NCBI GenBank assembly: GCA_963677595.1
Contig: OY782041.1
Location: forward strand, 3,680,001-3,744,000
Source: Spirochaetia bacterium
Lineage (GTDB): Bacteria; Spirochaetota; Spirochaetia; CAKZLE01
Direction: 5' to 3'
DNA length: 64,000 nucleotides
Positions 18,369-28,631 of this stretch are shown here, one piece after another. The translations under genes were made by a program, and so were the position numbers. Position 1 is the first letter of the stretch, and every line of letters starts with the position of its first letter. The notes under the pieces are model-generated. The model did no database searches. It saw nothing but the letters and a program-made list of their open reading frames with translations, and was not told where the DNA came from.

Positions 18369-18758
18369 CTATTGTCGACGAAACAGGGTAGCGAACGCTG
18401 ACTTGATCCTGCGGATGATGCGCTGGATGAGGTTGGGGTTCCTCAGCCGGTCGATCCGGGCGAAACCGTCAGCCAGTTCAGAGGTTGACAATGCCCTTCG
18501 GTAGAGGTTCTCGTCGATCTCCATCTGGATCTTGGCTGCATCACTGTCCACATGCACGACATGTACCTCTACCGTGATCCAGCCGAGTCTCCGGACGGAT
18601 TCCAGCCGCCGTTCCCCGGCGATGAGCTCCTTCTTCTCGTTGACCACGATCGGGTTCATGAGGCCGTGTGTGTTGATGCTCTCCATCAGTTGAGTGAGAT
18701 CTCCAAGATCCTTCCGGATCCTGCGTTTTGCTTTAATTTCGTCGACTCGTAATTGCAT
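18369..18758 (-). CDS. ParB N-terminal (ParBc/Srx-like) domain-only protein
   Basis: LMESINTHGLMNPIVV...LIAGERRLES...IDENLYR; ends without HTH/dimerisation domains. Confidence 0.85.
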   Translation of the reverse strand: MQLRVDEIKAKRRIRKDLGDLTQLMESINTHGLMNPIVVNEKKELIAGERRLESVRRLGWITVEVHVVHVDSDAAKIQMEIDENLYRRALSTSELADGFARIDRLRNPNLIQRIIRRIKSAFATLFRRQ

Positions 18759-18931: not shown

Positions 18932-20146
18932 GTGAGTACGACGTACCGGAAGAACATCATCGTGGAATACCTCTTTATCATAGCATGCAACCTCGACCTC
19001 ACACGAGGGCTGTGGATGATCTACCTCGCCCTGCGAGGATTCTCGCTCATCGAGCTCGGGATCTTCGAGAGTGCCTTCCATGTCACCTCCTTCCTCATGG
19101 AGGTCCCGACCGGTGCCGTAGCCGATATCTGGGGGAGGAAAGCCTCCCGCCTGTGGGGGAGGGTCTGCTTCCTTGGCAGCCTGGTCATCATGTTCACTGC
19201 CGGCAGCTTCTTCGTGCAGCTGGTCGGGTTCATGGTGTGTGCCGTCGGGTACAACCTCGAGTCCGGTGCGGGTGATGCGCTCGTCTATGATTCCCTCAAG
19301 CTCGATGGGGAGGCTTCCGGGTACAAGAAGGTCGCCGGCCGCAGGGAGTTCCTCTACCAGGCATCAGCGATTGTCGCCTATGTGGTCGGCGGCTACCTCG
19401 CAACACGGGATTATTCCTATATCTTCATCATCTCCATCGTGCTCGCCGTGGCTTCGATCCTGGTCGGGAGCCTCTTCAGTGAACCAGTGAGCAGGAAGAA
19501 GGAAGAGAGTCAAACCAAAGAAGAGCGGCCCTCGGTCAGGAAGCAGACGGCCCTGAGCATCAGGGTAGTCAGGGAACGGCCGAGGATCGCCTTCCTCATC
19601 CTCTTCTCTGAGATCATCTTCGCGGCTATCGTCACCGAGTACTTCTACCTGCAGAACTACTGGAAGGGAAACGGGTTCTCGGAGTTCCAGATCGGGGTCA
19701 TCTTCGCCGTGAGCGCCTTGACCTCAGGGGTCTTCGGGCTGTATACCAACCGGATCGAGAAGCGGTTAGGCGAGCACGGCGTGCTGTTGTCGATGCCGGT
19801 CCTGCTCATCATCTGCCTCTGGGGGATCGCCCTCACTCCCTACCACTACCTGTTCTATATCATGACGGGGGTCATACAGGGGATCCTCAGTGTCGCGATC
19901 AGTGACTATATCAACATGCTGATCCCAAGCGGGCAACGGGCTACCATCCTCTCCTTCCAGAGCATGGCTTTCAGCTTCATCATGATCATCCTCTTCCCGC
20001 TGACCGGGCTTCTAGGCGACCACATCTCGATACGGACTGCCTTCATCGTGATCGCCGCGATCATGACGGCAGGAGGGAGCGCCTATTTCATCTACTACAG
20101 CAGGAGGTTCTATGGAAACGTTCATAGAGAAGATCACCAGGACTGA
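18932..20146 (+). CDS. MFS transporter
   Basis: EVPTGAVADIWGRK motif A, SGAGDALVYDSL, about 12 TM. Confidence 0.9.
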   Translation: MSTTYRKNIIVEYLFIIACNLDLTRGLWMIYLALRGFSLIELGIFESAFHVTSFLMEVPTGAVADIWGRKASRLWGRVCFLGSLVIMFTAGSFFVQLVGFMVCAVGYNLESGAGDALVYDSLKLDGEASGYKKVAGRREFLYQASAIVAYVVGGYLATRDYSYIFIISIVLAVASILVGSLFSEPVSRKKEESQTKEERPSVRKQTALSIRVVRERPRIAFLILFSEIIFAAIVTEYFYLQNYWKGNGFSEFQIGVIFAVSALTSGVFGLYTNRIEKRLGEHGVLLSMPVLLIICLWGIALTPYHYLFYIMTGVIQGILSVAISDYINMLIPSGQRATILSFQSMAFSFIMIILFPLTGLLGDHISIRTAFIVIAAIMTAGGSAYFIYYSRRFYGNVHREDHQD

Positions 20147-20891
20147 GCATGCGTATACCTGCCTCTTCAGCAGTGTTGTCAGGACGGAATACGGGTACCG
20201 CTATACAGATATGCTCCTCCCCGACATGTACTGCCACAACAGCTTCAGGGTCTCTCCCGATGCCGGGTGCATTCCCCTCTCACTCTTTGCTGAGGAGGCT
20301 GCCTACCGTAAGGGAAACGGTCAGGATGTCGTTCAGATCGAGTACTTCGATGGAGGTGACGCTGCATTCCCCGAAGGTCTCGACTATGAGTCGGTCTCTC
20401 AGCAGCCTGTCTACTATGCAGCCCTCAATGAGTTCACTCCCAGTTCGAGTGCATCCTGCACCGTGAAGCCGGCCAGGGATGAACGCATGTTCACCGATGG
20501 CAGGAACATCGACATAGCCTCCTTCATCCCAGGGTTTGAGGAGTTCGCCGGGAGGCGGTATGACCGTAAGAAACCCGTGTACGCTGATCGGTCTGCTCCC
20601 TTCGAGAACCTGATCTGTTATGCAGGGGATACACCTGTCGGGAACTGCGACCTCTTCATCGACGGCGACACCGCTAAGATCGAGGACCTCGATGTCCTTG
20701 AACCCTACCAGCACCGGGGGTACGGTACGGCCATCCTGCAGGAGATCGGCGGTATCTGCAGGGATGCCGGCGTTCGCCATATCTACCTGCTCGTCGATGA
20801 TGACAATGAGGGGGCTATTCGGCTCTATACGGCAATCGGCATGCGGGAGGTCATGAACAACCACCTCTACCGCCGGGAATTTGATGCCTGA
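20112..20891 (+). CDS. GNAT family N-acetyltransferase
   Basis: VLEPYQHRGYGTAIL, NEGAIRLYTAIG. Confidence 0.85.
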   Translation: METFIEKITRTEHAYTCLFSSVVRTEYGYRYTDMLLPDMYCHNSFRVSPDAGCIPLSLFAEEAAYRKGNGQDVVQIEYFDGGDAAFPEGLDYESVSQQPVYYAALNEFTPSSSASCTVKPARDERMFTDGRNIDIASFIPGFEEFAGRRYDRKKPVYADRSAPFENLICYAGDTPVGNCDLFIDGDTAKIEDLDVLEPYQHRGYGTAILQEIGGICRDAGVRHIYLLVDDDNEGAIRLYTAIGMREVMNNHLYRREFDA

Positions 20892-20941
20892 AGAGGGCTT
20901 GAGCGCAGGGAGAGGTGGGAGTACAATAGGGGTATGAGGAG

Positions 20942-21874
20942 ATGAGTATGGGTGTAGAGAGAAGGATACGCGAGGTCCTCTGGAGCAAGGGGACTGTTGA
21001 GGGTGCAGGGGTGAAGCTGAAGCGTGCGTTCGGCTTCCATGAGAAGCCGCAGTTCGACCCCTTCCTCCTGCTCGATGATTTCAGGTCTGATGATCCCTCC
21101 TCCTTCGAGAAGGGGTTCCCCTGGCACCCCCACCGGGGGATCGAGACGGTGACCTACCTGCTCACCGGTTCTGTCGAACATGGCGACAGCCTTGGGAACC
21201 GCGGAGTGATCAATGCCGGGGATGTCCAGTGGATGAGCGCGGGCAGCGGCATCATCCACCAGGAGATGCCGAAGGGAGACGGAACGGGGCTGCTCGAGGG
21301 GTTCCAGCTGTGGGTGAACCTGCCCGCATCGAAGAAGATGTCAGACCCCGCCTACCAGTCGATCACCAGGGATATGATCCCTGAACTCTCCTTCACCAAC
21401 GGGATGGAAGTACGCCTGGTCGCAGGGGACGTCTCCGGGATCAGGGGGCCGGTTCGGGATCCCTATACCGACCCTGAACTCCTCGATATAAGGATGCCGC
21501 CGCACACGACCTATACCCACCCGACAAAGAGGGGCCATACGGTGTTCACCTACGTCATAGGAGGAGAGGCCCTCTTCACGAAGGACCAGCATGAGTTCTC
21601 ATGTGACGAGGAGAGTGAGAACTTCACCAATGCATCCCGTCACAGGAACTACCATGATGGGGCGGTCCTCCTCTATACCGACGGGAGCCAGATCACCTTC
21701 ACGACCGGGGAATCCCCGGTGAGGTTCATCCTGGGGGCCGGGAAGCCGCATCATGAACCAGTGGCATGGTACGGGCCGATCGTCATGAACACCCGGAAGG
21801 AGCTCGATGAGGCCTTCCGTGAGTACCAGGAGGGGACCTTCATCAAGGTCGGTGCGGGAGATGTCCATGGCTGA
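20942..21874 (+). CDS. Pirin family protein
   Basis: DPFLLLDDF, GFPWHPHRGIETVTY, QWMSAGSGIIHQE, FQLWVNLP, YGPIVMNT. Confidence 0.95.
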   Translation: MSMGVERRIREVLWSKGTVEGAGVKLKRAFGFHEKPQFDPFLLLDDFRSDDPSSFEKGFPWHPHRGIETVTYLLTGSVEHGDSLGNRGVINAGDVQWMSAGSGIIHQEMPKGDGTGLLEGFQLWVNLPASKKMSDPAYQSITRDMIPELSFTNGMEVRLVAGDVSGIRGPVRDPYTDPELLDIRMPPHTTYTHPTKRGHTVFTYVIGGEALFTKDQHEFSCDEESENFTNASRHRNYHDGAVLLYTDGSQITFTTGESPVRFILGAGKPHHEPVAWYGPIVMNTRKELDEAFREYQEGTFIKVGAGDVHG

Positions 21875-22322
21875 GATCCGCTACACCCATACCAACCTGG
21901 TCGCCGGTGACTGGAAGGCGCTCGCCGCCTTCTACATCGACGTATTCGGCTGCACCCCGGTACCGCCGGAACGGGACCTGGCCGGCAGCTGGATAGACCG
22001 GCTCACCGGGATCGATGGTGCCCGTATCACCGGGACACACCTGCTGCTGCCCGGTTTCGGCCCTGGTGGGCCGACCCTCGAGATCTTCCAGTATGAGCCG
22101 GACCATAAACCTGGTGACCCTGACCCGATCAACCGGCACGGGTTCGCCCATATAGCTTTCCACGTCGATGATGTGAGGCAGCTGGTGGACCGCATCATCG
22201 AGGGGGGAGGGTGCCTGCTTGGTGAGCTTGTGGACAGGCAATATGAGGACGGGAGGGTATTGACGGTCGCTTACTGCAGGGACCCGGAGGGGAACTGCCT
22301 GGAGATACAGAATTGGAGTTGA
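21867..22322 (+). CDS. VOC/glyoxalase family protein
   Basis: HTNLVA...FYIDVFG...LEIFQY...HIAFHVDDV...DPEGNCLEI. Confidence 0.9.
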   Translation: MAEIRYTHTNLVAGDWKALAAFYIDVFGCTPVPPERDLAGSWIDRLTGIDGARITGTHLLLPGFGPGGPTLEIFQYEPDHKPGDPDPINRHGFAHIAFHVDDVRQLVDRIIEGGGCLLGELVDRQYEDGRVLTVAYCRDPEGNCLEIQNWS

Positions 22323-22340
22323 TTACAAGGAGATACACCT

Positions 22341-23042
22341 ATGGGACGAGCCAAGACTTTTCTGGCCTACTACAACAAGATCGAGAAGACACTCGAATCA
22401 CTCTATACCGGTCCTGAAGAACATATGAGCTTCTATGAGCTCATCCAGACCTTGCGGCGGACCAATAGGCAGGTAGCCTATTTTGCCGATGAGCTGCACG
22501 AGTACCGCACCCTGCGGAACGCCATCGTGCATGATACCGTCGGTGACATGGTGATCGCGGAACCCTGTGAGACCGTCGTCGTGAGGATCAGGAAGATCCA
22601 TGAACTGCTGACGAAGCCGGCACTGGTCATGGACCTGTGCAAGGGCCAGGAGGTCGTGAGCCTCACGTTCACCGACAGCCTGCAGCAGGTCCTCTCCCTC
22701 ATCCGTGATACTGGGTATTCCCAGTTCCCGGTCATCGACTGCAAACGGGTCATCGGGATCCTCACCAGCCATACCGCTGCCTCATACCTGGCAGACAGGA
22801 TGCAGGGGAACGAGTTGATCATCGACAAAGCGACCGTCTCGGACCTCTTCAGGGTCAGCGATGACAAGGAGGACTTCATGGTCATCGCCAGGACCTCGAC
22901 CGTATATGATGTGAGTGTGCTGATCAGGAAACACCCGAAGGTCTCGATGTTCATCGTGACCGAGAGCGGTAAGCCGACACAGCACCTGCTCGGCGTGCTG
23001 ACAGCAGCTGACTTCCACCGGGTCTACGGGATGAGGAACTAA
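22341..23042 (+). CDS. HEPN-like (Rx4H) N-terminal domain fused to a CBS pair
   Basis: FLAYYNKIEKTL...LRNAIVH in N-terminal helical domain; YSQFPVID...IGILT and LLGVLTAAD CBS motifs. Confidence 0.75.
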   Translation: MGRAKTFLAYYNKIEKTLESLYTGPEEHMSFYELIQTLRRTNRQVAYFADELHEYRTLRNAIVHDTVGDMVIAEPCETVVVRIRKIHELLTKPALVMDLCKGQEVVSLTFTDSLQQVLSLIRDTGYSQFPVIDCKRVIGILTSHTAASYLADRMQGNELIIDKATVSDLFRVSDDKEDFMVIARTSTVYDVSVLIRKHPKVSMFIVTESGKPTQHLLGVLTAADFHRVYGMRN

Positions 23043-23051
23043 CAGGCTCCC

Positions 23052-23753
23052 ATGACATTGAGAGAGCGCTATAGCCAGATATATATGCAAACCCTTGAGA
23101 CGATCGAACGGGATGGGTTCTCCTATGATACCACGATCATCGAACCATCTGATGATCGGTACGGTCTCACTCTCATCGGGAGGATGACCTCTGGAGGACT
23201 CCATTCGGAGGTGCAGGGACTGTACGGGGAGATCGGGAAGGCTGCCCCCGGCAGCTACCTCTATCCGGTAGCGGACCTCCACATCACGGTGCTGAGCCTC
23301 ATCGAGTGTGCGGCGGGCAGGACCTTCAGCCCCGATGAGCTTCAGGAGCATGCCGCCCTCCTTATGGAAGCTCTCCATGATGTCGGGCCGATCCGCGTCG
23401 ACGTCACCGGCCTGATCGCCTCTCCCACCTGCCTCATGCTCGCGGGCTACCCTGAACATGATCAGCTGAACCACCTGCGGGACCGGATCAGGTCAGGGTA
23501 TGGGAAGCATCCTTCGATCTCCCATACGATCGACTCACGGTATACCCAGGTGACAGCCCATGTCACGATCGCCCGCTTCACCCGGCCGGTGAACGACAGC
23601 AGGAGGGTATTGGACATCCTGGAACGGTACCGGAAGCACCCCTTCGGGAAGCAGGTTCTGAGGACTCTCGAACTCGTGACGAACGACTGGTGCCTCACGT
23701 CCGGGAGGACGAAGAAGATCGCTGTCTTCCCCCTGCGGGAGGATCATACGTGA
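23052..23753 (+). CDS. 2H phosphoesterase (2'-5' RNA ligase / cyclic phosphodiesterase family)
   Basis: Two HxT motifs: LHITVL and AHVTIA. Confidence 0.8.
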   Translation: MTLRERYSQIYMQTLETIERDGFSYDTTIIEPSDDRYGLTLIGRMTSGGLHSEVQGLYGEIGKAAPGSYLYPVADLHITVLSLIECAAGRTFSPDELQEHAALLMEALHDVGPIRVDVTGLIASPTCLMLAGYPEHDQLNHLRDRIRSGYGKHPSISHTIDSRYTQVTAHVTIARFTRPVNDSRRVLDILERYRKHPFGKQVLRTLELVTNDWCLTSGRTKKIAVFPLREDHT

Positions 23754-24637
23754 GCCTGATAGACCTCCACATCCACAGCAGGGTGAGCCTAGACGGTGAG
23801 TTCTCCCCGGCTGAACTCGTCTCGAAGTGCGCTGCTGCAGGCCTTACGTACATCTCGGTGACTGACCACAACAGCTGCAGGGCGGTCGCCGAGGCAGTCT
23901 CACTCGCAGTCCAGGCGGGTATTACCTGCATCCCGGGGATTGAGATCGACTCGATCTTCGAGGGTAGGAACCTGCATCTGCTCGGGTACGGGGTAGATCC
24001 CGCCGCTGAGACCTTCGAGGCACTGCATGTTCGGGTGCTGGAACGGGAGCGGAGTGTCTCCTTCGAGCGCATCGAGCGGGTGAACCGCCTTGGGTTCGAC
24101 CTCTCCATCGAAGATTTCCCGCAGTTCGAATCGCGGGGGACCGTTGCCCCGGAAGATATTGCGGCAGTACTCCTCTTGGCAGAGGATGCCGACAGCATCG
24201 ACCTGCTAAAGCCCTACCTGCCCGGCGGCAGCCGGTCAGACAACCCCTATGCGAACTTCTACTGGGACTTCTTCGCTGACGGTAAGCCCTGCTGGTGCGA
24301 TATGGGGTGGATCACGCTGCAGGAGGCCGTGAAGCTGGTCATCGATGCAGGGGGAGTCCCCGTCCTGGCTCATCCCGGGGTCACCATCGGTCGCGATGAG
24401 GAGACAGCAGAAAAGGTCGTGGAATTGGGCGTGCAGGGGATCGAGTGCTTCTCTTCCTACCATGACTCGAAGATGAGTGAGTCCTGGTATGCGTTTGCGA
24501 AGCACCGCGGTCTGACGGTAACTGCCGGGAGTGATTACCACGGGTATTTCAAGCCTTCGGTGAAGCTCGGCGGCGACCATGCGACCATAGCTGATGAAGA
24601 ACTCTTAGACTGTATCGATAGACTCATCCGGAAGTGA
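23750..24637 (+). CDS. PHP-domain phosphoesterase (TrpH/YciV-like)
   Basis: IDLHIHSRVSLDG, TDHN, GIEID, HLLGY, LAHP, GSDYHG; GTGA overlap with 2H gene. Confidence 0.9.
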   Translation: MSLIDLHIHSRVSLDGEFSPAELVSKCAAAGLTYISVTDHNSCRAVAEAVSLAVQAGITCIPGIEIDSIFEGRNLHLLGYGVDPAAETFEALHVRVLERERSVSFERIERVNRLGFDLSIEDFPQFESRGTVAPEDIAAVLLLAEDADSIDLLKPYLPGGSRSDNPYANFYWDFFADGKPCWCDMGWITLQEAVKLVIDAGGVPVLAHPGVTIGRDEETAEKVVELGVQGIECFSSYHDSKMSESWYAFAKHRGLTVTAGSDYHGYFKPSVKLGGDHATIADEELLDCIDRLIRK

Positions 24638-24647
24638 GGGGGAAACC

Positions 24648-24839
24648 ATGAAAAGACGACTGTTCCTACTGTTCTCAGGGATCGAATGCGCAACGCTCGC
24701 GGTCCTGATCTATCTTGCTCTTACTGCCCTGCAGGCAGCAGGGCTCGATGCACGCATCCTGCTGAGCATCATCTTCCCACTCTTCGTGTTCATCGTGCAG
24801 TACTTCATCTATGATGCTGCCTACACTATGGGGGAATAG
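24648..24839 (+). CDS. Small two-TM membrane protein
   Basis: GAGGGGG RBS, 63 aa, two hydrophobic segments, 10 bp after PHP gene. Confidence 0.55.
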   Translation: MKRRLFLLFSGIECATLAVLIYLALTALQAAGLDARILLSIIFPLFVFIVQYFIYDAAYTMGE

Positions 24840-24859: not shown

Positions 24860-24906
24860 TTGACAAAACCGCATGCTCTGGTAAGATATGAGTTAACGAT
24901 AACGCA
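24860..24906 (+). promoter_or_regulatory. Sigma-70 promoter and LacI-type operator
   Basis: TTGACA-16-(TGG)TAAGAT, then imperfect palindrome TGAGTTAAC|GATAACGCA centred on CG. Confidence 0.6.
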
Positions 24907-25982: not shown

Positions 25983-26461
25983 TCAAGCGGTATCAAGCGG
26001 GACTGGAGGGGGAGATCTCACACTTCATCCGACGGGTCTTCGATCAGTTCATAGGCAGGGACTACTCAGAGGAGGGCAGGGAGACGTTCTACCGGTTCAC
26101 ATCCCCGGAATCGATCCGTTCGAACTTCCTTGGGCAGAATCTCCTGCTGTGCCACTACAGCGGCGATGTCCTTACCGGGGTGATAGCTCTCCGGGCCCCT
26201 GGGCATATCAGCCTGCTCTTCGTCGACCCCCAGTACCACCGGCAGGGCATAGCTTCCGGCCTCTTCAGGGAGCTGCTGCACATCCTGCCCGATGCGTCGG
26301 TCCACCTGAGCGTGAACTCCTCACCCTACGCGGTCGAAGCCTATGGGCATCTGGGGTTCGAGGTGAGTGACCTAGAGCAGCTCAAGGATGGGATCATCTA
26401 TATCCCCATGCGCACTACCCTGGATGCGGGACAGCTGCTATCCCGGATGACCCTAGCGTGA
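25979..26461 (+). CDS. GNAT family N-acetyltransferase
   Basis: HISLLFVDPQYHRQGIASGL, VNSSPYAVEAYGHLGF. Confidence 0.88.
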   Translation: MIKRYQAGLEGEISHFIRRVFDQFIGRDYSEEGRETFYRFTSPESIRSNFLGQNLLLCHYSGDVLTGVIALRAPGHISLLFVDPQYHRQGIASGLFRELLHILPDASVHLSVNSSPYAVEAYGHLGFEVSDLEQLKDGIIYIPMRTTLDAGQLLSRMTLA

Positions 26462-26496
26462 TTGACATCGGGTACGCAACACCCTATATTCATGGT

Positions 26497-27759
26497 ATGG
26501 ATCAAGAGTTCGAGTTCCGCCTGGACAATGCCGCAAAGATCTTCGCCGCTCAGCACTCAAAGCGCCGGACCACCATGTTCAGGCTGTCAGCGGACCTGTC
26601 TGAGCCAGTGAACCTCGATCGGCTCACGACTGCCTACGAGCACATGCTCATTCGGTGTCCTTATTACCGGGTGCAGTTGAGGAGGGGACTCTTCTGGTAC
26701 TATATCGAGCCGTGTGAGACGAAGGCCCATGTCGAGGCTGAGAGTCGATATCCCTGCATGTACATCCCATTCAAGCGACGCGGTATGCTCCCGTTCCGGG
26801 TGCTTGCCTATAAACAACGGATCATCTTCGAGGTCGCCCATCTCATTACCGACGGGACTGGTGCCCTCGAGTTCCTCAACGGCATCATCCTCGAGTACCT
26901 GCGCCTTGGCGGGCACGAGATACCATCCGAGCATATGGTCCTTGACTGCCGGGAGCCCCTGGACCCGGCGGAGTTCGAGGACAGTTTCCAGCAGCTCTAT
27001 GAGAAGGGGATCCCCGGCCCGGTCAAGACCGACCGTGCCTACCAGGTCAGGGGGAGGGCGCTTCGGGTACCGCGCTATGATATCATCGAGGGGATCATGG
27101 AGAGCGATGCCCTGAAGCTGGAGGCGAAGAAGTACGGTGCGACCATCGGCGAGTTCCTCACGGCCCTCCTGCTCGACACCCTGATGAACGATATGCTCGT
27201 CCATAGCCGCCGGAAGAAGCCGGTGAGGATAAGCATCCCGATAAACCTGCGGAAGATGTTCCCCTCGCAGACCATGCGGAACTTCGCCCTGACGATCGAA
27301 CCCGGCATCGACCCGAGGCTCGGTTCCTTCAGCTTCGAGGAGATCGTGGAAAAGGTGAGGCAGTTCATGAAGATGGAACTCGACCAGCGGTCCATCAAGC
27401 GACAGATCGCGAGGAATGTGGGGAGTGAGCGGAATCCCTTCGTGCGGATCATCCCACTCTCCCTCAAGGATCCCATCCTGAGGAAGTTCTATGAGCGCTT
27501 CGGCAGCATCACCTTCACGCTGAGTCTCTCCAACCTCGGGAGGGTAGAGCTGCCCGAGGGAATGAAAGAACATGTGAGGGCCTACCAGTTCATCCCGCCG
27601 CCCCACGGGAGGAAGCTCAGCGTCACCTCCATTGCCTACGGGGGGAAGACCAGCATCATCTTCGGGAGTACGATCACGAATACCGAGATCGAGCAAAGTT
27701 TCTTCTCAAAGTTGAGAAAGATGGGGATCCATGTCACAATAAAGACGAACAGGAGATGA
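26497..27759 (+). CDS. Condensation-fold / alcohol acetyltransferase-like acyltransferase
   Basis: RLDNAAKIF, HLITDG (HxxxDG), IPINLRK, SLSNLG. Confidence 0.8.
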   Translation: MDQEFEFRLDNAAKIFAAQHSKRRTTMFRLSADLSEPVNLDRLTTAYEHMLIRCPYYRVQLRRGLFWYYIEPCETKAHVEAESRYPCMYIPFKRRGMLPFRVLAYKQRIIFEVAHLITDGTGALEFLNGIILEYLRLGGHEIPSEHMVLDCREPLDPAEFEDSFQQLYEKGIPGPVKTDRAYQVRGRALRVPRYDIIEGIMESDALKLEAKKYGATIGEFLTALLLDTLMNDMLVHSRRKKPVRISIPINLRKMFPSQTMRNFALTIEPGIDPRLGSFSFEEIVEKVRQFMKMELDQRSIKRQIARNVGSERNPFVRIIPLSLKDPILRKFYERFGSITFTLSLSNLGRVELPEGMKEHVRAYQFIPPPHGRKLSVTSIAYGGKTSIIFGSTITNTEIEQSFFSKLRKMGIHVTIKTNRR

Positions 27760-28631
27760 TGAGTATGCCATATTGCCCGAGATGCGGAGTGGAGATCGAA
27801 GACCGGCTTGAACGATGTCCCCTCTGCGAGACCCCGATCCCCCATGCCGTCAGGGATGCTGAAAAAGCCCATGAACGCGATTTCCCCAAGGATGTGATTC
27901 GCCCGAAGCCGATGTACCGTGAGCTTTCTGATAAGGAGAAGCGGGTGCTCGTGACCGGGTTGATTGCCTTCGTTGGCCTCTTCCCCATCGCCATCACCAT
28001 GGGACTTGACCTGCTGCGTTCCGGCAGGGTCACCTGGTCTTACTATGTGCTCGTGCCGGTATTGGGTGCTGCACTCATCGCCTGGTTCTTCTACCGGTTC
28101 GGGAGGAGACCGCTGGTCTCGGTCACCACCTGTATGGTCATCCTCCTCCTGATCGAGATCCTCATCGAGATGAAGGTCTCCTCCGTGAGCAGGTTCCTCA
28201 TAGAGGACCTTCCATTCTTCGCCGCAGCCTTCCTCGCGATCGAACTGCTGCTCATCTTCATCGTGAAGGCACACCCGAACCCCGTGCAGCTGCTGGCCGT
28301 CATCTTCATCGACACGTCACTCCTGGTGATCGGGATAGACTGGATCATCTCCCAGTCGGTCTCCTGGTCAGGGATCGTGACTGTATGCCTGTTGTGGGTA
28401 TCGGTCTACCTGATCTATATCGACAGGACCAAGAGACGGGGCCTCAACATCATCGGGTTCCTCTTTCTCGATGTAGCCATGATGCTGCTCTCCCTTGAGC
28501 TGGCGATCAGCGGGAGGATGAACTGGTCGATCGTGACGACCATGATCTTCATACCGATCAGCATCCTCTTCTACATCCTCCACCTCACGCTGTTCAACGA
28601 CACGGACTGGAAGAAGGCCCTGCACCTGTAA
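27756..28631 (+). CDS. Zinc-ribbon plus multi-TM membrane protein (DUF6320-like)
   Basis: CPRCGVEI...CPLC at N-terminus, many TM segments, KKALHL C-terminus; ATGA overlap with acyltransferase. Confidence 0.7.
   Translation: MMSMPYCPRCGVEIEDRLERCPLCETPIPHAVRDAEKAHERDFPKDVIRPKPMYRELSDKEKRVLVTGLIAFVGLFPIAITMGLDLLRSGRVTWSYYVLVPVLGAALIAWFFYRFGRRPLVSVTTCMVILLLIEILIEMKVSSVSRFLIEDLPFFAAAFLAIELLLIFIVKAHPNPVQLLAVIFIDTSLLVIGIDWIISQSVSWSGIVTVCLLWVSVYLIYIDRTKRRGLNIIGFLFLDVAMMLLSLELAISGRMNWSIVTTMIFIPISILFYILHLTLFNDTDWKKALHL

Follow-up and report, generated by a model that had tools for sequence, protein, structure and literature searches.

HEPN ribonucleases (RNases) act as dimers through an Rx4-6H motif and leave 2′,3′-cyclic phosphates, while pairs of CBS domains bind adenosyl ligands. 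Here we analyse a gene that joins the two, found in a stretch of 64,000 nucleotides from a Spirochaetia bacterium (assembly GCA_963677595.1, contig OY782041.1, positions 3,680,001 to 3,744,000; hereafter the window). A preliminary description of this DNA had proposed that the gene forms, together with the 2H and PHP phosphoesterase genes that follow it, a nucleotide-gated module for RNA cleavage and end processing. As judged from its motifs and modelled fold, the first gene does encode a real HEPN-CBS fusion; it is inherited vertically in the host family, and its 2H and PHP neighbours probably belong to an array limited to one genus.

That HEPN-CBS proteins may be ligand-regulated RNases has been described before: the idea was proposed in 2013 (Anantharaman et al., 2013; PMC3710099) and validated for a protein of reversed domain order in 2026 (PMC13092281). 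In the accessible part of the 2013 paper, HEPN-CBS(-HD) fusions are predicted to regulate RNA stability by nucleotides; the examples named there are alr3009 and a Pelobacter protein (gi 118580987), among them forms of the Abi2/Swt1 group that carry an HD domain. The window protein, of 233 amino acids (aa), shares with these the joining of HEPN to CBS. The 2026 protein, DS-11 (Escherichia coli WP_000257686.1, from DefensePredictor), is anti-phage, and the available sections of that report state that its HEPN residues and CBS residue Y157 are both required; they place an N-terminal region of ~130 aa before CBS at 134–241 and a C-terminal HEPN domain with R330, in 365 aa altogether (PMC13092281). 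In each of the two proteins a single chain carries both a pair of CBS domains and a HEPN domain with Rx4H, an adenine ligand is proposed to control the RNase, and Y157 in the DS-11 sequence YSQLPV matches, when counted by eye, Y126 in YSQFPV here. Nevertheless, CBS precedes HEPN in DS-11, while here HEPN (residues 1–93) precedes CBS (94–233), and against the DS-11 family model (NF053863, DS11_antiphage; cut-off 260 bits) the window protein scores 27.4 bits and its relatives 27–30. We therefore rejected identity with DS-11 on grounds of order, length and score. The HEPN-first family differs from DS-11 also in that several lineages keep it like a core gene. A search for the DS-11 family at E ≤ 1e-15 found it in none of 301 genomes of the phylum, although the positive control for this search gave no signal. 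In literature that was partly accessible, our searches found no paper on a HEPN-first CBS family or on a HEPN-CBS/2H/PHP module.

The window protein was aligned with the 150 best of 912 family representatives (50% identity level, E ≤ 1e-30), at a median identity of 28%. R59, N60, H64 and P75 are invariant in all 151 proteins, and the Rx4H motif is likewise invariant in the 42 members of another alignment. Taken alone, Rx4H would be weak evidence, because 510 of the 3704 long open reading frames (ORFs) of this genome (14%) carry it by chance within their first 95 aa; the narrower pattern R[NDH]x3H occurs there in 69 (1.9%). RNAIVH exceeds this chance level because the four residues are invariant and because the domain has a HEPN-like fold. 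For the glutamate upstream of it in YNKIEK, to which the preliminary description had also pointed, the E15 column is commonly acidic (129 of 151; E in 91, D in 38) but not invariant, and the sequence at this point reads EKTLE rather than Ex3[KR], the form expected in HEPN helix 2.

A model of the isolated N-terminal domain (predicted local distance difference test score 90.5) was compared by VIA with 48,161 chains. Ranks 1–8 were all HEPN domains (Z 7.6–8.7; 89–91 of 94 residues aligned), the top match being 1wwp (Z 8.7, root-mean-square deviation (rmsd) 3.2, 90 aligned); the others were 1jog, 2hsb, 8xdj, 7ae2, 5yep and the Csm6 structures 4rgp and 6tug. Among the matches were HepT toxins, Csm6 and AF0298, and also MtlR, GlnE and sacsin. 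The best Foldseek match was again a HEPN domain, that of sacsin, at weak significance (probability 0.63, TM score 0.49, E 0.5). The fold is persuasive because HEPN domains are enriched among the top matches, and not because of the Z score. Full-length fold searches were dominated by CBS-pair matches, the ESM Atlas yielded nothing beyond CBS or unnamed clusters, all under 0.9, and an N-terminal profile gave only non-significant matches to PDB sequences, HepN toxins among them (E 1.1–1.7). The HEPN assignment in the preliminary description, together with the conservation of Rx4H on which it depended, is thus upheld by the invariant motif and by the HEPN domains that headed both fold searches. 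The HepT/HEPN toxins and Csm6 (1wwp and the last five structures above) have the same helical fold, with Rx4H ending a long helix as it does in our model (helix 43–64), and Csm6 is likewise a ligand-gated HEPN dimer. In contrast to these systems, the sensor here is a CBS pair, and the HEPN-CBS neighbours examined included neither an MNT antitoxin nor a CARF domain nor a CRISPR locus; in the window an MNT nucleotidyltransferase antitoxin was not found beside the gene, which is flanked by VOC and 2H genes.

The CBS pair itself is unambiguous. Pfam recognizes two CBS stretches (E 4.5e-12) in addition to a weak, sub-threshold HepT-like match over residues 31–65 (E 0.042), and the model of the pair has a Bateman fold that superimposes on 2rc3 with Z 14.8 and rmsd 2.8 over 125 aligned residues. 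Adenosyl sites of CBS pairs carry the motifs h-y-y-h-P and G-h-h-T/S-x-x-D. One such signature is retained here, as YSQFP and GVLTAAD, which together probably make up a single adenosyl site; the Asp is missing from the second site. The site columns are conserved, with P130 in 150, T221 in 137 and D224 in 144 of the 151 proteins and an aromatic residue at position 126 in 140. Another genome (G088; L135:4523-5023) has a CBS pair of this YSQ-h-P subtype that stands alone, with no HEPN domain, and where it lies the neighbours resemble by eye a cysteine/sulfur cluster (cysK-like, desulfurase-like, Rrf2-like and metY-like genes).

The closest relatives of the window HEPN-CBS protein come from metagenome-assembled genomes of uncultured Spirochaetia. 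The gene is present in four of five host-family relatives; no full-length match was found among 300 other genomes of the phylum, and samples of 301 Bacillota genomes and 281 class-level genomes contained it in 23 and 45 cases, respectively, in many unrelated contexts. HEPN-CBS is inherited vertically in the host family: in a quick, unfinished version of the tree, which leaves out L217, L218 and L264, the five host-family copies group in a single clade, together with one database protein that is nearly identical (Shimodaira–Hasegawa-like approximate likelihood-ratio test, SH-aLRT, 100). When two other genomes of the genus, G001 and G002, are compared, no gene of the array is better conserved: its identity is 91%, and that of its neighbours 68–79%. 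The HEPN part is under very strong purifying selection, with 98% identity and a ratio of non-synonymous to synonymous divergence (dN/dS) of ~0.01 (dN 0.009, dS 1.07).

In Enterococcaceae, HEPN-CBS is a fixed core gene before lspA-rluD-pyrR; of 82 loci, 60 have the pyrR cluster. The Enterococcus faecalis member, EF1724, belongs to the same family as the window protein, with which it shares 30% identity, and contains LRNAIVHE. Its gene lies between fhs and lspA (locus L020), but its neighbours are fhs, lspA, rluD and pyrR and its locus has neither 2H nor PHP. At L020:6001-6693 and at ~60 Enterococcaceae loci, HEPN-CBS corresponds to EF1724 by its position directly 5′ of lspA-rluD-pyrR. EF1724 is annotated solely as a CBS protein, and the accessible part of the study that called it fitness-‘Important’ by transposon sequencing (Tn-seq), and 100% conserved in 24 species, makes no mention of a HEPN domain (PMC7701990). 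The record OR846607.1 (L333), entered as ‘Enterococcus phage Efs 1-1-1’, holds the chromosomal block fhs, CBS, lspA, rluD, pyrR, uraA and pyrB; its block at HEPN-CBS is likely to be host DNA.

On balance, these findings lead us to favour a stand-alone, vertically inherited HEPN-CBS protein that would act as an adenine-nucleotide-gated RNase under energy or nucleotide stress, a mechanism that draws by inference on DS-11 and on what is established about the biochemistry of HEPN and CBS domains. Two copies would pair via their CBS pairs, and AMP, ADP, ATP or diadenosine tetraphosphate (Ap4A) would bind at the Y126/T221/D224 site. The bound ligand may then shift the two HEPN domains, opening or closing the one R-N-x3-H active site that they share, and cellular RNA would then be cut to leave 2′,3′-cyclic ends. 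The ligand-sensing RNase put forward in the preliminary description survives as a prediction, on which the motif, the HEPN fold, one CBS nucleotide-site signature and the DS-11 precedent agree. Because the gene behaves as a core gene, a role in housekeeping or energy stress, such as RNA turnover or growth arrest, seems more likely than that of a fast-evolving defence toxin. If this reading is right, adenylate sensing would be linked directly to RNA decay, and the label ‘CBS domain-containing protein’ would cover such an RNase in the 912 representatives, a core Enterococcus gene included. At 233 aa, the protein is also a small test case for CBS-ligand gating of a HEPN nuclease, a question left by DS-11.

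Several points weigh against this reading. Common helical arrangements can reach Z 7–9, by the VIA tool's own warning, and canonical HEPN helix 1 seems, in the model, to be absent, because alignments to single-domain HEPN targets begin at target residue 21–44; in this the protein would differ from HepT and Csm6. The Tn-seq call for EF1724 has a gene-centric p of 0.54 in the available portion of that study (PMC7701990), and the effect may be polar because the gene lies directly 5′ of the ‘Critical’ lspA. A purely housekeeping role is made uncertain by family members in defence-like contexts, namely three plasmid loci, three of 21 Bacillota loci and one scored predicted defence gene. The apparent absence of helix 1 would suit a non-catalytic regulator, whose short HEPN fold binds RNA or a partner without cutting while CBS ties binding to the energy state; HEPN-fold matches without RNase roles (MtlR, GlnE, sacsin) and a core gene without an adjacent antitoxin, suggestive of low toxicity, are in keeping with it. 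We nevertheless consider such a regulator very unlikely, since R, N and H are invariant across 151 distant members, the pattern of an active HEPN RNase, and non-catalytic HEPN families, according to the accessible part of the 2013 paper, lose the R/N/H motif (PMC3710099).

The defence-like contexts bear instead on a stand-alone anti-phage RNase working, like DS-11, by abortive infection, in which an adenine nucleotide induced by phage would activate the HEPN dimer and arrest the infected cell. DS-11 is itself a validated one-protein CBS and HEPN system, and the predicted defence gene listed in the same partly available source, WP_107013552.1 (log-odds 6.4; PMC13092281, Table S4), encodes a 233-aa ‘CBS domain-containing protein’ with RNAIVH that is by eye a family member. 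Plasmid copies lie beside HNH/helicase, DNA methyltransferase, or SIR2-DUF87 and N-6 methylase genes, and the three Bacillota loci have methyltransferase (MTase) or AbiEi neighbours by PADLOC, in a count made without L264. PADLOC, however, gives no match for the HEPN-CBS protein itself, and no defence or mobility genes stand among the annotated neighbours at 14–33 kb of the window. Vertical inheritance, the strong selection on the HEPN domain and the fixed core position in enterococci likewise argue against defence; plasmid matches number only five in 72,556, phage records two in 50,697 (the one examined being an Enterococcus chromosomal block), none of ten candidate stretches in viral contigs was confirmed, and the low score against the DS-11 model comes from the CBS part only. 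We therefore regard a defence role as unlikely. Where PADLOC matched ABC/AAA ATPases, an HD protein or a histidine kinase, we took this for cross-matching and rejected these genes as defence genes. At L219 (plasmid pBL90), L217 and L218, HEPN-CBS stands beside SIR2-DUF87, N-6 methylase, NYN, HNH and helicase genes; on pBL90 the annotation gives it only as a short fragment.

The 2H enzymes open 2′,3′-cyclic phosphates or cleave cyclic or 2′-5′ oligonucleotides, and PHP enzymes of the YciV/TrpH type act on nucleoside bisphosphates and RNA ends. A module in which HEPN-CBS cuts RNA while co-transcribed 2H and PHP enzymes either repair the resulting ends or degrade the nucleotide that activates it would therefore be chemically coherent, and the genes are tightly coupled, with 9 bp between HEPN-CBS and 2H and a GTGA overlap between 2H and PHP. 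There is also retention at genus level: the order pirin-VOC-HEPN-CBS-2H-PHP-LacI is the same in G001, and PHP directly follows HEPN-CBS in G002 (86% complete). All three genes nevertheless occur together in only two of the three genomes of the genus (the window and G001), 2H being found neither at the locus nor elsewhere in the G002 genome, whose HEPN domain is still 98% identical to that of G001. In G003 and G005, of the same family, HEPN-CBS stands alone, and neither 2H nor PHP was found with these queries. We scanned 135 HEPN-CBS loci with three profiles, for the window 2H subfamily, for 2H of the ThpR/YjcG type (which found 25 of 25 control loci) and for PHP. Only the two same-genus loci scored, and none of the 133 loci outside the genus had 2H of either subfamily or PHP nearby; this set includes ~60 loci of one enterococcal block, ~13 of one other genus-level block and a few duplicates, and 28 of the 135 have flanks of only 1.5 kb. 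Conversely, HEPN-CBS is absent from all 80 metagenomic loci at which this 2H family was sampled, and none of nine close PHP loci has HEPN-CBS or 2H within 1.5 kb. A PF13563 gene is present in 19 of 27 other HEPN-CBS genomes but never adjacent, the nearest lying 26 kb away; we relied on our own 2H profiles because the PF13563 genome search missed the known 2H of G001. The window 2H is, in addition, the fastest-changing and least conserved gene of the array, at 40% identity to G001 compared with 49–67% for the others.

The module, and with it the 2H/PHP co-occurrence that the preliminary description expected in HEPN-CBS neighbourhoods, thus found no support outside the genus, and we hold it to be highly improbable. 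The 2H and PHP genes are likely to be local passengers, because relatives keep HEPN-CBS without them, and a three-gene module, restricted as it is to a single genus, adds little. More likely, 2H, PHP and the membrane gene are independent accessory genes in a genus-limited stress array shared with HEPN-CBS. Chance assembly, the fallback offered in the preliminary description, is a better fit for 2H and PHP, although the genus retains the array, which is thus not peculiar to one strain. A broader proposal, that this HEPN-then-CBS family of ~235 aa is a widespread RNase with a housekeeping function so far unrecognised, which reads energy charge or Ap4A, trims or silences RNA under stress (EF1724 being its core form in enterococci) and has repeatedly recruited unrelated 2H end-healers, in this spirochaete genus among others, so that the cut is reversible, seems to us clearly unlikely. 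When longer fusions (HEPN-CBS-2H or HEPN-CBS-PHP) were sought, 4024 matches resulted; the best 120 of the 4024 are all 201–246 aa long.

The four-ORF anatomy given in the preliminary description, with its coordinates, 9-bp gap and GTGA overlap, was recovered in full, the membrane gene following PHP after 10 bp (Table 1). Pfam, motifs and hydropathy likewise confirmed a 2H protein with two HxT motifs, then PHP, then a small membrane protein: the second gene matches 2_5_RNA_ligase2 (E 8.5e-7, above cut-off) and the third PHP (E 5.6e-12), and the 63-aa product of the last is hydrophobic along its entire length (Kyte–Doolittle 19-residue means 1.0–2.4). By Pfam, pirin and VOC genes flank the array 5′ and a LacI gene 3′.

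Table 1. Positions in the window of the HEPN-CBS gene, its sequence features and the surrounding array.
Feature	Position	Strand	Remarks
HEPN-CBS fusion gene	22341..23042	+	233 aa; predicted adenine-nucleotide-regulated RNase
HEPN-fold domain, N-terminal, aa 1-93	22341..22619	+	helices 3-21, 31-41, 43-64, 77-91
YNKIEK with acidic E15, upstream of Rx4H	22371..22388	+	alignment column
RNAIVH (R59-N60-x3-H64), HEPN Rx4H motif	22515..22532	+	codons CGGAACGCCATCGTGCAT
CBS pair, aa 94-233	22620..23039	+	structure match, Pfam, conserved columns
Y126-S-Q-F-P130	22716-22730	+	CBS, half of likely adenosyl site
G218-x-x-T221-x-x-D224	22992-23012	+	CBS, other half of likely adenosyl site
2H phosphoesterase gene	23052..23753	+	233 aa; HITV at H77, HVTI at H170
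PHP phosphoesterase gene, YciV/TrpH group	23750..24637	+	295 aa from GTG; metal-binding motifs present
Hydrophobic 63-aa gene, likely two-helix membrane protein	24648..24839	+	
Pirin gene, first of likely operon	20942..21874	+	sigma-70-like site at 20899-20927
VOC/glyoxalase gene	21867..22322	+	directly 5′ of HEPN-CBS in all three genus genomes
Promoter-like TTGACA-16-TAAGAT and near-palindrome GTTAACGATAAC	24860..24903	+	before LacI gene

The window 2H resembles the 2H superfamily (LigT/ThpR, PF13563) in its two HxT motifs, H77-x-T79 and H170-x-T/S172, which are kept in all 85 homologues. It differs from LigT/ThpR in belonging to a separate subfamily of ~230 aa, scoring 13 bits against the ThpR model TIGR02258 (cut-off 65.7). 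DUF1801, AHSA1, LOG, GNAT and Na/H exchanger genes are common neighbours at the 80 metagenomic loci. Two spirochaete homologues (L133:7089-7769 and L134:2136-2831) lie, by eye, beside sugar-catabolism genes (glycosidases, a sugar ABC transporter), and because of this the substrate of the subfamily may not be RNA. The assignment of PHP to the YciV/TrpH type holds at the level of the group and of the metal motifs: it shares the PHP fold and metal ligands with Cv1693 (2yb1, E 7e-25) and RNase AM (7ug9). It does not extend to a specific family, as the protein falls below every specific NCBIfam cut-off (133 of 400 bits for NF041577, 101 of 500 for NF041661 and 94 of 375 for NF047791), and its scores below NF047791 and NF041577 set it apart from RNase AM and Cv1693.

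The outer genes of the array vary within the genus. A GNAT gene 5′ of pirin (window 20112-20891) is missing in G001 and reduced to a remnant in G002, whereas G002 has the membrane gene of 63 aa, at 36% identity, and G001 lacks it at the same place; the array therefore appears readily to gain and lose genes. No RNA sample was listed as carrying the region among sequencing runs. Related DNA contigs from two studies span the whole region, which indicates its presence and not its co-transcription. Promoter and terminator scans of the region gave counts close to chance (4 compared with 3.4, and 5 compared with 3.7). TTGACA...TA(A/C)(G/T)AT and a palindrome precede LacI in all three genomes of the genus (window 24860-24903; L088:4290-4345; L087 upstream of 7626); the palindrome is perfect in G001 and G002 (GTTATCGATAAC) and a near-palindrome in the window. 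The conserved palindrome and promoter-like site are likely to be an autoregulatory LacI operator, and they probably mark the end of the array.

Farther out, a stand-alone ParB-N domain gene of 129 aa (window 18369-18758, minus strand) adjoins an M29 aminopeptidase gene, and is found also in G001. On the other side (window 26458-28631), a 433-aa ORF without a Pfam match overlaps a 291-aa gene with weak similarity to DUF6320, whose product has an N-terminal CxxC-x10-CxxC and many membrane helices.

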